26,508 nucleotides of DNA from an uncultured bacterium. Its GTDB lineage: Bacteria; Bdellovibrionota_B; Oligoflexia; Oligoflexales; RGVZ01. The translations under genes and the position numbers were made by a program. The notes under the pieces are model-generated. The model made no database searches. It was not told where the DNA came from and saw nothing but the letters and a program-made list of their open reading frames with translations. The stretch is from contig CAWUNT010000001.1 in the NCBI GenBank assembly GCA_963923405.1, forward strand, positions 1 to 26,508, in the 5' to 3' direction. Positions 9,548-23,218 of this stretch are shown in pieces (the stretch's first letter is position 1; each line of letters begins with the position of its first letter).

Positions 9548-10945
9548 ATGTCAACGAAACTGGGTCAACTCCTCGTCACCGAAGGGTTGCTATCCGAACA
9601 GGACCGCAAGACCATCCACGAAGCCTCCGGCAGTGCCGCCGGCGCTTTCGCCAAAGGCATCCTCGCGCTTGGACTGCTCGACGAGGACGAACTCGCCGCA
9701 TTCATCGCGGACCGCACCCACTACCGTATCGCCGCGAAGGACATCTTCTCCGAGGTTGACGACCGGGCCCTGGGCGCGATCGACACGCCCCTCTTGCGCC
9801 AGTTGGAAGTCCTGCCCCTGCGCCTCGATGCGAACGTTCTCGTCGTCGCCATGATCGACCCGCTCGACCGTTCAACGATCCATCAAGTGGAATTTTTCAC
9901 GGGCTGCAAAGTACGCCCGCTGATCGCGACCTTGCGACAAGTTCGCAGTGGCCTGTCCCGGCTCATCCCGGGATACAAGCCGGTGCCGTCCGCCTTTGAA
10001 GTATTCATGGAAACCCACATGGGCGGTCTGAAATCCAGCCTGTCGAAAACCGGCAAGGCCCGTGAACTCGTCGCCCGGTTCCAGGGCGGTCCATCGACCC
10101 CGCAGCCTGCCCCCCAGCCAGTATCGCCGGCCGCGAGTCCTGTCGCCCCCGCGCGACCGGCAGTCGATGTTGATCCAGCGCTGGACCTCGCGGCCGCCGC
10201 GGCCCCGGACAGCCCCGGTCCCGAAATCGATGTGGCCGCCGGGATGGACGCGGCCACGCCGGTACAGGAAGAGACGGCACCGCCGGCACAGGAAGACACT
10301 CCAGCGATCCTGCAACCGCAATTTGCCGCCCCGCCAGCCGTTGCCTCTGATGAGGCCGGCGCCAACAAGGCCTTGCTGGCCCTGAACAAGAGAATTCTCG
10401 AAATCTCCGTGGAGAAGGACACGGCCGCGGCGTTGAAGGTTCTGGTGGAAGGACTTTTTACCGCAGGAATTGAATCCGGCGCGATCACCATCCATGCGCC
10501 CGCTGAAGGCGACAAGCCCGCGCGGGACAGTGGCGCCATATGGTCCGGCAAGGAATCGCTCGCCAACGTCGCGACAGGCGAGTTGACCGGAGACACGACC
10601 GGCCAACTGATCGCGGCCATTATCGGTTACGCGCCTGAATCGATGGAGTCAGACGGCTGGCTTCAGATTCCTGGCGAAGACGCGGCCGGGGTCAAGGCGG
10701 CCCTCGACATGATCACTTCCAGGGTCGATTCGTCGGATTCCGGAATGACGCGCGCCGCCATCGAGTCTTCCATCGCTGGATCGGAAAGCGTCCTGATGGC
10801 CCGCGCCCTGAAAATGAAAGGACAATCCCGCGATCTTGTAACCCTTCTCGTCTGGCCAAACGGCAGCGCCGGTCACGACGCGTTGCGGGCAGCAGTGTCG
10901 AACGCGCTGCGCGCCTATGCCCAGATTGTCGATCAGGGTTCCTGA
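9548..10945 (+). CDS. Stand-alone MshEN (GspE N-terminal) domain protein with Pro/Ala linker and GAF-like C-terminus
   Basis: KLGQLLVTEGLL motif and LPLRLDANVLVVAMIDPLD (GspE-N); no Walker A/B; GGAG before ATG 9548. Confidence 0.8.
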   Translation: MSTKLGQLLVTEGLLSEQDRKTIHEASGSAAGAFAKGILALGLLDEDELAAFIADRTHYRIAAKDIFSEVDDRALGAIDTPLLRQLEVLPLRLDANVLVVAMIDPLDRSTIHQVEFFTGCKVRPLIATLRQVRSGLSRLIPGYKPVPSAFEVFMETHMGGLKSSLSKTGKARELVARFQGGPSTPQPAPQPVSPAASPVAPARPAVDVDPALDLAAAAAPDSPGPEIDVAAGMDAATPVQEETAPPAQEDTPAILQPQFAAPPAVASDEAGANKALLALNKRILEISVEKDTAAALKVLVEGLFTAGIESGAITIHAPAEGDKPARDSGAIWSGKESLANVATGELTGDTTGQLIAAIIGYAPESMESDGWLQIPGEDAAGVKAALDMITSRVDSSDSGMTRAAIESSIAGSESVLMARALKMKGQSRDLVTLLVWPNGSAGHDALRAAVSNALRAYAQIVDQGS

Positions 10946-10977
10946 TCTCTGCCGGGGTGAAACTGGCTGTGTGGGAA

Positions 10978-11102
10978 AAGAGCTGGCCGACTGGATTGGG
11001 GGATCAACGGGAGCTTTCAACGGGGTATCAACAAAACGCAGCTTCAGCAGGATCACCCGGGTTTTGAATCCAGGTGAAGGTGGTCAGCCGACCAGCTCTT
11101 GC
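10978..11102 (-). ncRNA. Candidate sigma54-dependent small RNA (about 125 nt)
   Basis: ORF-free intergenic region; 16-bp terminal helix (11100-11085 with 10993-10978) fully paired only on the minus strand via 2 G-U; starts at the predicted TSS of the promoter at 11113-11129. Confidence 0.6.
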
Positions 11103-11112
11103 GGGATCCTTG

Positions 11113-11129
11113 AGCAGTGAACGTGCCAG
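11113..11129 (-). promoter_or_regulatory. sigma54 -24/-12 promoter
   Basis: Minus strand CTGGCACGTTCACTGCT (GG-N10-GC, perfect TGGCACG). Confidence 0.7.
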
Positions 11130-11219
11130 ACGCGAATCCAGCCAAAAACCTCATAAATACGGTAACTTGAATGATGCCCAACGTGCCCGCGCCACACCTT
11201 TCTTGCCTCTCGTGCGAAC

Positions 11220-12479
11220 ATGCGACCAAACATTGAACAGAAAGACGCGTCCGGGCGCCGACTTGTCGGCCTCCTTGCCTTCGTCCAGTTCGTCAACATC
11301 CTCGACTTCATGATGGTGATGCCTCTTGGCCCTGATTTCAGCGCCGAACTCGGAATCCCCACATCAAAACTGGGAATCGTCGGCGGCAGTTACACGGCCG
11401 CGGCAGCCATCAGCGGGCTGGTATCGGCATTCATCCTGGACCAGTTTCCGCGCAAAAAAGCCCTCATGACCGTGGTGACAGGCCTCTCCGTTGCCACGTT
11501 CGCCGGGGCATTCTCGACTGGCCTTGATTCCCTGCTGGCCGCGCGCGTCCTGGCGGGCTGTTTTGGCGGACCCGCGTCGGCCCTGGCCCTGGCGATTGTC
11601 GCGGACGCCATTCCTGTTTCCCGGCGTGGCCGCGCCCTGGGTGTCGTCATGGGGGCCTTTTCAATCGCCTCGATCGCGGGCGTACCAGTGGGCCTGGAAC
11701 TGGCCCGCGCCGGAGGTTGGCGCGCTCCGTTCATCGGAGTCGGCGCCCTGGCCCTGATCGCGGTCCTCGGCACCTGGCTTTTCATGCAGGAACCCGCGAT
11801 TCCACAGCGGGCGCCAGGACTCCCGGGGGCCCCTCGACTGACGGTCAGGAAGTTGCTGGCGCAGTTTCGCAAACGCGATCACTTGATTTCCCTGGCGCTG
11901 GCGGGGACTGTCATGTTCTCCGGGTTCATTGTCATCCCGAATATCGCCGCTTTCGTACAAAAAAACCTTGGCTACCCGCGCGAGAAACTCGGCTTCATGT
12001 ACATGGCCGGAGGCTTGGCGAGCCTCGTGTCGATGCAGATCGCGGGGCGCCTCACGGACCGCGTCGGCGCGCTTGCGACGTCCGCCTTTGGAACGGCTGT
12101 GCTGCTCACCGCCCTGATCTTCGGTTTCGCGCACCATGAACCGGCCTTCACCCCCGCTGTCATCGCGGGCCTGTTCATGACCGGGACATCGATTCGCGCG
12201 ATCTCGTTCAACACGCTGACCAGTCGCGTGCCACAACCCAACGAGCGCGGCGCCTTCATGTCCGTGCAGTCAACCATGCAGCACGTCGCCTCGGCCAGCG
12301 GCGCGTTCGTCTCTTCGCATTTGCTGACTTCAGATACCGATGGCAAACTTCTCGGAATCGAGACGGTGGCTGGAATCTCGGTCGTCATCTCACTTTGCGT
12401 ACCCGTGTTGATCCAGATCCTGGAAAAACAAATCGCGAAGCGCGAAAAAACAAAGCTCGACGAGGCTATACGAAGTTGA
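11220..12479 (+). CDS. MFS transporter (drug:H+ antiporter-like)
   Basis: About 12 TM helices; motif-A-like regions (LDQFPRKKAL; GRLTDRVG); GCFGGPASALALAIVAD..PVSRRGRALG. Confidence 0.88.
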   Translation: MRPNIEQKDASGRRLVGLLAFVQFVNILDFMMVMPLGPDFSAELGIPTSKLGIVGGSYTAAAAISGLVSAFILDQFPRKKALMTVVTGLSVATFAGAFSTGLDSLLAARVLAGCFGGPASALALAIVADAIPVSRRGRALGVVMGAFSIASIAGVPVGLELARAGGWRAPFIGVGALALIAVLGTWLFMQEPAIPQRAPGLPGAPRLTVRKLLAQFRKRDHLISLALAGTVMFSGFIVIPNIAAFVQKNLGYPREKLGFMYMAGGLASLVSMQIAGRLTDRVGALATSAFGTAVLLTALIFGFAHHEPAFTPAVIAGLFMTGTSIRAISFNTLTSRVPQPNERGAFMSVQSTMQHVASASGAFVSSHLLTSDTDGKLLGIETVAGISVVISLCVPVLIQILEKQIAKREKTKLDEAIRS

Positions 12480-21142: not shown

Positions 21143-22606
21143 TTACGCTCCCATTTCTTCCTTGAGGCATTCGCGGGTCATTCCATATTTCACCATGAGG
21201 CGATAGATGTCGGCGCGGTAGCGCCCGCAAATTCGCGCGGCCTCCGAGATGTTCCCGCGCGACAACTTCAGGAGTTCACGCAAGTACAACTTCTCGAAGT
21301 TCTCCTTGGCCTCGGAAAGAGGCATTGCCAGGTAATCCACCATCGCGGCGGCTGCCCCGGCAAGGGCAGGATCCGGGGAATCGACGCTGATCATCCCGGC
21401 GTCCTCGATCATGTGGTCGATCCGCAGCTTGCCGTCGCGCGCCAGCACGACACCACGCTCAACAGCGTTTTGCAGTTCACGAATGTTGCCCGGCCAGGGA
21501 CGGGACACGAGACGTGCCATGATCTCCCGCGACGGCGCTTCGACATTCTTGCCAAACCGCGCATTGAACATCGCCAGAAAATGGTTCACCAGCAATGGTA
21601 TGTCTGAGGTCCGTTCCCGCAGGGGTGGCAAGTGGATCTTTAGAACCGACAACCGGTAGTACAGGTCCTCACGGAAACGGCCCTTCCGGACTTCTTCCTC
21701 GAGGCTGCGATTGGTTGCCGCAACCACCCTCGTATTGACCTTGATCGACTGGTTGGACCCGACCGGAGTCACGCGGCTCTCCTGAAGGACGCGCAGCAAT
21801 TTAACCTGAAGCTGCAGCGGCATCTCCCCGATTTCATCGAGGAACAGGGTCCCATCCGAACACGTCTCGAAGAATCCCTTGTGGTCCGTCTTCGCGTCCG
21901 TGAAAGCTCCCCGTTTGTGCCCGAACAATTCGGACTCGAGAAGAGCCTCTGGAATCGCGCCACAGTTGATGGCCTCGAATCTCTTGCCGGCACGCGCGCT
22001 GGTCGAGTGCAGGGCCTTCGCCACCACCTCCTTGCCAGTGCCGCTCTCACCAGTGATGAGGACACGAGAGTCCACGTCACGGAGGATGTCAATGTAGTCC
22101 ATGACCCGCTGCAGGGCCGCGCTCTCACCCACCAACCCGAAATCAGCGGCTCGCAAACTGGAATGCGGAACCAGGCCTCCCGGCGCAACGTCAACCGGAC
22201 CGGAAATTCCAGCAGTACCGGCAATGCCGCCCTTGAACCCGAGCCGGGCCTTCAAACCCTCGACCAGAGCCGACGGGTCGCCCGTCTTGACAAGGAACGA
22301 TGTCGCGCCGCGCTCCATCGCGTCCACGGCGACTTCGATGCTGCCTTTTGCCGTCATCACGAACACGCGGGTTGTTGGCGACTCACGCAAAATCAAAGGC
22401 AGCGCCTCAAGCCCGTCCTCGTCACCAAGGCGCACGTCCAGCAACACCGCGTCATAACGGGAACGCCGCAACAACTCCGCAGCCTCTGCCAGGCATTCCG
22501 CGGAGTCACACTCGAAACCAGCGGCGCGAAATCGCGCCCCAAGAAGCTCGAGCAGGCACGGATCGTCATCAACCATGAGAATTCGCAAGTCACACCCCCG
22601 AATCAA
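21143..22606 (-). CDS. sigma54-dependent response regulator (REC-AAA+-Fis HTH, NtrC family)
   Basis: ILMVDDD, VLLDVRL, Walker A GESGTGKE, ESELFGHKRGAFTDA, Walker B LFLDEIGEM, FREDLYYRL, WPGNIRELQN, HTH GNISEAARICGRYRADIYRL; TTG start overlapping the hpt stop. Confidence 0.95.
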   Translation of the reverse strand: MIRGCDLRILMVDDDPCLLELLGARFRAAGFECDSAECLAEAAELLRRSRYDAVLLDVRLGDEDGLEALPLILRESPTTRVFVMTAKGSIEVAVDAMERGATSFLVKTGDPSALVEGLKARLGFKGGIAGTAGISGPVDVAPGGLVPHSSLRAADFGLVGESAALQRVMDYIDILRDVDSRVLITGESGTGKEVVAKALHSTSARAGKRFEAINCGAIPEALLESELFGHKRGAFTDAKTDHKGFFETCSDGTLFLDEIGEMPLQLQVKLLRVLQESRVTPVGSNQSIKVNTRVVAATNRSLEEEVRKGRFREDLYYRLSVLKIHLPPLRERTSDIPLLVNHFLAMFNARFGKNVEAPSREIMARLVSRPWPGNIRELQNAVERGVVLARDGKLRIDHMIEDAGMISVDSPDPALAGAAAAMVDYLAMPLSEAKENFEKLYLRELLKLSRGNISEAARICGRYRADIYRLMVKYGMTRECLKEEMGA

Positions 22607-23201: not shown

Positions 23202-23218
23202 CTGGCACAAACTGTGCT
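23202..23218 (+). promoter_or_regulatory. sigma54 -24/-12 promoter, divergent from hpt, no clear downstream CDS
   Basis: CTGGCACAAACTGTGCT (GG-N10-GC; -12 GTGC rather than TTGC). Confidence 0.55.

Follow-up and report, generated by a model that had tools for sequence, protein, structure and literature searches.

In the stretch of DNA analysed here (the window, 26,508 nucleotides), the minus strand of one intergenic spacer very probably encodes a structured non-coding RNA driven by sigma-54 (Table 1). This RNA is the first-seen member of a family that is not catalogued in Rfam 15 and that extends over seven or more families of the order to which the window belongs (probably Oligoflexales, phylum Bdellovibrionota). 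The original prediction had proposed a new sigma-54-transcribed structured RNA on the minus strand whose promoter and fold agree in strand and start point, and this proposal is upheld by covariation of the paired positions, strand-specific G-U pairs, sigma-54 boxes upstream of 32 of 32 inspected copies, and the lack of both an Rfam match and a conserved open reading frame.

The window is contig C1 of a 2.6-Mb metagenome-assembled genome (MAG) that is 77% complete. This genome carries rpoN on contig C193 (221 bits), whose product shares about 62% identity with proteins assigned by name to Oligoflexales, Oligoflexus, and Pseudobacteriovorax, and its strong matches to Sigma54_activat comprise at least six true activators. 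The spacer that holds the element is 274 bp long and lies between two plus-strand genes, coding for an MshEN-domain protein and an MFS transporter. The element is single-copy in the genome and belongs to no repeat family, by which an origin as a repeat or mobile element was rejected.

Table 1. Coordinates of the predicted RNA, its promoter, and the genes beside it or beside its distant relatives
Feature	Position	Strand	Remarks
Sigma-54 (-24/-12) box CTGGCACGTTCACTGCT	11113-11129	-	GG at 11126-11127 and GC at 11114-11115, i.e., GG-N10-GC
Predicted RNA, ~130 nt	10973-11102	-	5' end from promoter geometry; 3' end from the U-run after the closing helix
P1 5' arm AAGAGCUGGUCGGCUG	11085-11100	-	16 bp with the 3' arm
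Unpaired ACCACCU	11078-11084	-	With the start of P2 reads ACCACCUUCACC; candidate seed resembling an anti-Shine-Dalgarno sequence
P2 hairpin UCACCUGG ... CCGGGUGA	11053-11077	-	100% paired in 11 homologs
C/U-rich, G-poor domain	10994-11052	-	Little conserved structure; three GUUGA units
P1 3' arm CAGUCGGCCAGCUCUU	10978-10993	-	Partner of the 5' arm
Short U-run and C-rich tail UUCCC	10973-10977	-	Possible 3' end after P1
MshEN-domain protein gene, 477 aa	9512-10945	+	Upstream side of the spacer
MFS transporter gene	11220-12479	+	Downstream side of the spacer
mrp/apbC-type genes in distant relatives	L304:154-1365, L306:1744-2943, L312:1815-2927, L318:1-1362, L307:1805-2641		

Promoter, fold, and strand of the RNA

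The minus-strand box from which a transcription start near 11102 had been foreseen is present with the GG-N10-GC spacing. Its core TGGCACGTTCACTGCT (11113-11128) has the GG at -24 and the GC at -12 within a TGGCAC-N5-TTGCW-like pattern, and the geometry of the box places the predicted +1 near 11102. The strict pattern TGGCAYN5YTGCW occurs three times in the window against 0.09 expected occurrences, and its genome-wide count of 14 is no higher than in shuffled sequence, so that the box by itself proves nothing. Comparative data carry more weight: the GG, the GC, and the GG-N10-GC spacing are invariant in 11 genus-level homologs, and a TGGCAY-N6-YGC motif lies 25-72 nt upstream of P1 in all 32 inspected copies retrieved with the promoter-free models R2 and R3 described below, against a background of 0.0018 per 90-nt window elsewhere in the same loci. 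These boxes at promoter-free matches are the strongest evidence for the predicted sigma-54 dependence of the RNA. Activator sites of sigma-54 promoters lie about 80-150 bp upstream, and none was identified for the RNA. The DNA in question overlaps coding sequence (of the MFS gene in the window and of mrp elsewhere), and conservation upstream of the promoter is therefore uninformative as to an enhancer.

The long helix of the original prediction was likewise recovered, with all 16 pairs of P1 forming on the minus strand, two of them as G-U, and the same two positions being A-C mismatches on the plus strand. Folding of both strands yielded -48.6 kcal/mol and z = -1.54 for the minus strand, in a structure that keeps the long helix and the inner hairpin, and z = 0.0 for the plus strand, which thus folds no better than shuffled sequences. 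Since the single-sequence signal is weak even on the minus strand, the case beyond chance relies on conservation and covariation and not on folding energy. An alternative inner helix (CUGGAUU/AAUCCAG), suggested earlier as a switch, does exist in the window, but just 3 of 11 homologs keep it intact and the others show no compensation for its loss; the P2 hairpin is supported in its place.

The spacer is present in five of the six other genomes of the window's genus, where conservation of the block 10974-11129 far exceeds that of the 90 nt beside the MFS start. Conservation falls sharply outside this block, and covariance-model matches span the range of the RNA in all homologs. Five more homologs were taken from contigs encoding close MFS relatives, and a structure-blind MAFFT alignment of 11 sequences, confined to close relatives, was examined for base pairing. 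In this alignment, 99% of the pair cells form and eight pairs are changed on both sides, six of them in P1, while partners slid by one to three columns pair in 28-46% of the cells. Wherever a wobble cell occurs, it is G-U on the minus strand and hence A-C on the plus strand, and the minus strand has not a single A-C cell; on these grounds, the RNA was assigned to the minus strand.

This asymmetry bears directly on whether the conserved block might instead be a plus-strand 5' leader, riboswitch, or other regulatory element of the MFS gene, which it directly precedes throughout the genus. Read on the plus strand, the helix contains A-C mismatches in every varying homolog, the fold is at the level of shuffled sequence, and conservation within the spacer is lowest in the 90 nt nearest the MFS start. 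Moreover, the element is absent upstream of close MFS homologs (60-67% identity) in other gene contexts where the available upstream DNA sufficed (locus L282, with too little of it, is uninformative as to absence), and distant members of the family adjoin unrelated genes such as mrp/apbC. A leader could account for an unstranded RNA-library contig that begins at 10973 and stops about 20 nt short of the position equivalent to the MFS start, yet given these observations it is hardly credible.

Nor is it anything but extremely unlikely that no functional RNA is made at all, the block being conserved as DNA (through protein-binding sites) or the inverted repeat being a relic of a mobile element. 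Such a reading could draw on the modest z-score of the single sequence and on transcription being as yet a prediction. It is opposed by the strand-specific G-U asymmetry, by the promoter at a fixed distance, by the single copy without a repeat family, and by compensatory changes that keep the pairing despite sequence drift over seven families.

With regard to coding capacity, no open reading frame is common in frame, start, or stop among 22 members, and indels of 1-2 nt separate close homologs within the RNA; together, these two findings indicate that it is not coding, in agreement with the earlier view that no open reading frame led by a Shine-Dalgarno sequence follows the promoter. A GTG inside the RNA opens a 135-aa frame (10649-11056, minus strand) that continues, antisense, across the 3' end of the MshEN-domain gene. 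Pfam gave no match for this frame, and indels of 1-2 nt interrupt it in relatives; it was rejected as a gene and is probably spurious.

Known RNA classes were also considered. Searches of Rfam gave no match in the window at the gathering score, none in 10900-11250 at E ≤ 10, and nothing on the RNA in 12 distant loci at E ≤ 0.1; Qrr, GlmY, and GlmZ are among the families without a match. A canonical 6S RNA (RF00013) is encoded at another locus of the same genome (G000 contig C42, 58.8 bits) as well as in four relatives, and the element itself has no 6S match. A bacterial Y RNA was rejected because no Ro/TROVE gene was found in the five genomes checked, and the sequence of P1 drifts freely with compensation. 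A CsrA sponge of the CsrB/RsmY type was rejected because the single GGA of the window RNA is not conserved; the single-stranded domain is G-poor.

Within the RNA, the unpaired segment that follows the 5' arm of P1 is identical in 10 of 11 genus-level homologs, with one change in L292. The sequence ACCACCUUC is nearly invariant in the genus, where this C-rich stretch is the best-conserved unpaired segment, and across the family the segment has the consensus YCAC(C/A)UU. The role of a seed, which the original prediction had considered for the C-rich stretch, is plausible in view of this conservation in the genus and of the core kept family-wide. The P2 loop bears a 22-nt insertion in L279. For the C/U-rich domain, just a weak 3-bp helix is predicted. 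The three GUUGA units noted earlier as suggestive of repeated binding sites are present in the window (TCAAC on the plus strand at 11004, 11017, and 11028), but their conservation is partial, and the unit found family-wide is closer to YUGCUG plus CCGUUGA; the motifs of this domain across the family are UGYUGCUG, CCGUUGA, and GCUCC, of which UGYUGCUG forms, together with YCAC(C/A)UU, the conserved single-stranded stretches. The UUCCC tail after P1 does not amount to a canonical terminator, and in the window's genus none was called farther along the minus strand. Several distant family members have a hairpin-plus-U terminator directly after P1, as would be expected of a discrete small transcript.

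Distribution across the order

An initial covariance model, which included the promoter, gave weak full-length matches in two other families of the order. Inspection by eye revealed that the canonical sigma-54 box in these two families lies about 20 nt farther upstream than the model had placed it, the order in their loci being the box, then an extra 5' hairpin, then the long helix. The models R2 and R3 were built from the RNA body without promoter columns, with R3 being trained on the matches of R2. R2 matched 22 of 95 genomes of the order, and R3 matched 38 of 131 genomes of the class, all 38 of them in the window's order and distributed over the families f1, f6, f7, f10, f11, f13 (12 of 12 genomes), and f15 (13 of 22). 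R3 had no match in 36 genomes of the class's other three families; because the search filters were strict, misses of either model are not absences. A 17-mer search of public genome and metagenome contigs returned, among the matches listed, almost exclusively chance hits and one true hit, in the known genome G005.

The family alignment of 33 rows is 94.5% paired, with 22 of 23 pairs changed on both sides, including 16 of 16 in P1 and six of seven in P2, against 22-46% pairing in slid controls; the covariation counts of alignments A5 and A6 lean towards structure, since these alignments were fitted to the model. Collection of homologs and analysis of their covariation, first among the 11 genus-level sequences and family-wide in these 33 rows, thus bear out the predicted fold.

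Some members depart from the form seen in the window. Most copies outside the window's genus g1 (L304, L306-L315, L320-L329) carry, between P1 and the predicted start, an additional hairpin of about 20 nt, and in most of these members 41-49 nt separate box and helix, compared with 25-26 nt in the window's lineage. The additional 5' hairpin was apparently lost in the window's genus. Genome G066, from another family of the order, has two tandem copies about 400 nt apart (L294:1069-1235 and L294:1476-1645), each with its own TGGCACATCAAGTGCA box, and their 5' hairpin stems differ by compensatory changes (GGCAGC/GCUGCC versus UAGCAGC/GCUGCUA). The copy in G061 (L316:660-818) contains a long (CUG/UUG)n run in its C/U-rich domain and shows no upstream box by the strict pattern; it may be degenerate or expanded.

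Elsewhere in the order, the RNA has varying neighbours and is frequently located just downstream of an mrp/apbC-type ATPase gene. In f15, f11, and G067, it is found about 70-170 nt downstream of, and co-directional with, a gene for an mrp/apbC-type P-loop ATPase (Pfam ParA/NUBPL, ~310 bits; Table 1). This position may be the ancestral location of the RNA gene.

Expression and mode of action

Among the RNA runs, the element was found in one only, an aquaculture metatranscriptome, which contained 46% of the sampled words of the RNA region against 5% of those of the surrounding 1.2-kb stretch. Its single contig, which derives from the L276 strain, is 228 nt long at a depth of 2.4 and unstranded. 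One end falls at 10972/10973, the predicted 3' end of the RNA, and the other about 97 nt past the predicted start, beyond the promoter. Relative to the window, this strain has one listed change in the RNA body against seven in the 8 nt between the -12 box and P1 (11104-11111). The contig is compatible with the predicted RNA without confirming its start and could be DNA carry-over or a longer transcript, which leaves the expression evidence ambiguous.

The explanation that fits best, and that we regard as reasonably probable, is a sigma-54-driven non-coding RNA of about 130 nt that acts in trans by base pairing, without Hfq; the base-pairing mechanism as such is held with about even confidence. 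A search of 22 genomes of the window's family (G000-G021, 14 of them at least 90% complete) found Hfq (PF17209) in none and CsrA in 21. Briefly, RNA polymerase with sigma-54 would transcribe 10973-11102 of the minus strand from the box at 11113-11129. Sigma-54 transcription calls for an enhancer-binding activator, and the RNA would therefore be made only once its cognate activator had been switched on. The 16-bp closing helix may clamp and protect the 5' and 3' ends while displaying the conserved single strands, the predicted order from 5' to 3' being the P1 arm, the unpaired ACCACCU, the P2 hairpin, and a C/U-rich domain of about 60 nt with short conserved motifs. One displayed strand, the 16S 3'-end-like ACCACCUUC, could pair with GGAGGUG-type ribosome-binding sites, and the other would be the G-poor domain with its UGYUGCUG, CCGUUGA, and GCUCC motifs. 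Both C/U-rich strands might pair with G/A-rich translation-initiation regions of mRNAs and so change their translation or stability. Occlusion of ribosome-binding sites is plausible, because several sigma-54-dependent genes in the window's genome have G-rich ones.

Scanning the genome for targets did not single out an mRNA. The complementarity of the unpaired segments to 2,909 crude gene starts of the 77%-complete MAG was no more than that of shuffled controls, and full-length duplex energies were uninformative for targets. The best match of the target scan, 18 bp with four G-U pairs, concerns a gene start on contig C52, with shuffled seeds reaching its score 0.5 times per run on average. The gene (C52:2190-2864, minus strand) has its complement to RNA positions 59-76 about 28 nt upstream of the crude start, within the shuffled range.

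This background level of mRNA complementarity would also suit an RNA that is real and sigma-54-driven but serves as a protein sponge or decoy, its repeated single-stranded units titrating an RNA-binding protein in the manner of CrcZ, RsmY, and CsrB. Short repeated motifs (GUUGA three times in the window; YUGCUG, CCGUUGA, and GCUCC family-wide) do lie in an unstructured domain held open by a helix, the (CUG/UUG)n run of G061 is expanded in this domain, and CsrA occurs in 21 of the 22 family genomes. The motifs are not GGA, however, and the only GGA, located in the P2 loop, has disappeared from G005, L292, and L279, which makes CsrA improbable as a partner; none of the 22 family genomes yielded an Hfq, and no candidate binding protein is known for these units, whose copy number is low (two to five) and whose spacing is irregular. 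A sponge role, though less likely than base pairing, is a real alternative.

A bolder proposal, and a decidedly unlikely one, is that the family constitutes a central post-transcriptional output of the order's large sigma-54/activator network, in a lineage where no Hfq was detected, through a clamp-held C/U-rich platform that either mimics the 3' end of 16S rRNA or titrates a YUGCUG/GUUGA-binding protein. If this were true, the mode of action would be one not yet described, and a 16S mimic would compete globally for strong Shine-Dalgarno sites.

Action in cis has also to be weighed, in which sigma-54-dependent antisense transcription or read-through would collide with the convergent MshEN-domain gene or form a duplex with its 3' end. 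Throughout the window's genus, the RNA is without exception convergent with this gene and no strong terminator follows P1; in the lineages of G001, G003, and G006, the gene has its stop codon inside the 3' arm of P1. The corresponding loci (L011, L013, and L012, respectively) lack about 45 nt relative to the window in the region corresponding to 10946-10985, and the MshEN-domain gene there ends with a TAG in the arm, so that gene and RNA overlap by about 10 nt. Convergence on a gene of about 500 aa recurs in several other families; these convergent genes, however, are not detectably related to the MshEN-domain gene (BLASTP found no significant homology among convergent genes across families), and in family f13 the downstream genes are co-directional. 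In the window itself, the predicted RNA ends 28 nt beyond the stop codon, and transcriptional interference alone needs neither conserved sequence nor covarying structure in the RNA body. Regulation in cis is accordingly very unlikely, and a trans-acting, base-pairing RNA remains the preferred reading.

The original prediction had further regarded the RNA as a possible output of the relay in the stress cluster; this phosphorelay is encoded 10 kb away. The genome has at least six activators, among them the one at 21143-22606, no motif is common to the DNA upstream of the RNA promoter and of the cluster's promoters, and of the 9-21 activator genes in each of five other genomes, none is a neighbour of the RNA gene. 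The lack of a common motif and of an activator near the RNA, together with the varying gene context, leaves the link to the relay unsupported. The unit CTKAACGAA is absent upstream of the RNA promoter except for one copy with a single mismatch in the MFS gene. This copy, CTGGACGAA (11280-11288, minus strand), differs at one position from the CT(G/T)AACGAA unit that precedes the hpt-activator operon; it sits within the MFS coding region, some 155 bp from the RNA promoter on its upstream side, and does not exceed chance expectation. Further good sigma-54 boxes occur in the stress/phosphorelay cluster at 23203 (plus strand), 23047 (minus strand), and 23900 (minus strand), the first of them with no obvious gene downstream.

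Relation to known sigma-54-dependent RNAs

Small RNAs dependent on sigma-54 are no new principle, being known from Vibrio, enterobacteria, Pseudomonas, and Campylobacter, and also from Myxococcus. The comparison with Qrr and GlmY made at the outset holds as a functional likeness; there is no homology to either, and Hfq was not found in the lineage. Qrr RNAs of Vibrio, which are sigma-54/LuxO-dependent, need Hfq, and qrr1 adjoins luxO. They share with the present RNA an own sigma-54 promoter and a conserved unpaired seed beside hairpins, and the tandem copies of G066, with a promoter each, are another likeness. In contrast to Qrr, the RNA described here has no Rfam match, its lineage has no detected Hfq, no activator adjoins it in five genomes, and its end-to-end clamp is a different architecture.

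The gene glmY is a neighbour of glrK-glrR, and its product serves to decoy the adaptor RapZ. In several species of Enterobacteriaceae, GlmY and GlmZ are sigma-54/GlrR-dependent (PMC3045617). As with the present family, these are sRNA genes with sigma-54 promoters kept across a whole taxon, whereas no homology exists and no glrK-glrR-type neighbourhood was seen beside the RNA.

Pxr is a three-stem-loop RNA under sigma-54/NtrC-like control that adjoins its regulator genes. It is a lineage-restricted non-coding RNA of the Myxococcales which controls development (PMC8538405). Both are lineage-specific small RNAs confined to one order, Pxr belonging to a related, activator-rich group with a predatory or social way of life; unlike Pxr, to which it has no detectable similarity, the RNA of the window has a closing helix that encloses a hairpin and an open domain, with no adjacent regulator.

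Campylobacter jejuni lacks Hfq, which was likewise not detected in the genomes surveyed here. Its RpoN-dependent sRNA CJnc230/FlmE represses the translation of targets by base pairing and arises by processing of the 3' end of flgE mRNA, itself RpoN-dependent (PMC11187230). FlmE is comparable as an RpoN-linked sRNA of an Hfq-less bacterium, but the RNA of the window differs in having a sigma-54 box directly upstream with no coding gene in between. CrcZ of Pseudomonas is a sigma-54/CbrB-dependent protein sponge whose A-rich motifs bind Hfq/Crc. It resembles the present RNA in being sigma-54-driven and in repeating short motifs in single-stranded stretches; the units here are C/U-rich, and the genomes searched yielded no Hfq.

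A search of the literature brought up no paper dealing with regulatory RNA in Oligoflexia, and the family offers a defined entry point into post-transcriptional control in this group. Its promoter would make a clean reporter for one of the group's many enhancer-binding activators, and the alignments could seed a new entry for a family missing from Rfam 15. The order includes the cultured genera Oligoflexus and Pseudobacteriovorax, which makes direct testing possible if a cultured member carries the RNA. The genomes matched so far include large and well-assembled ones, one of them closed.
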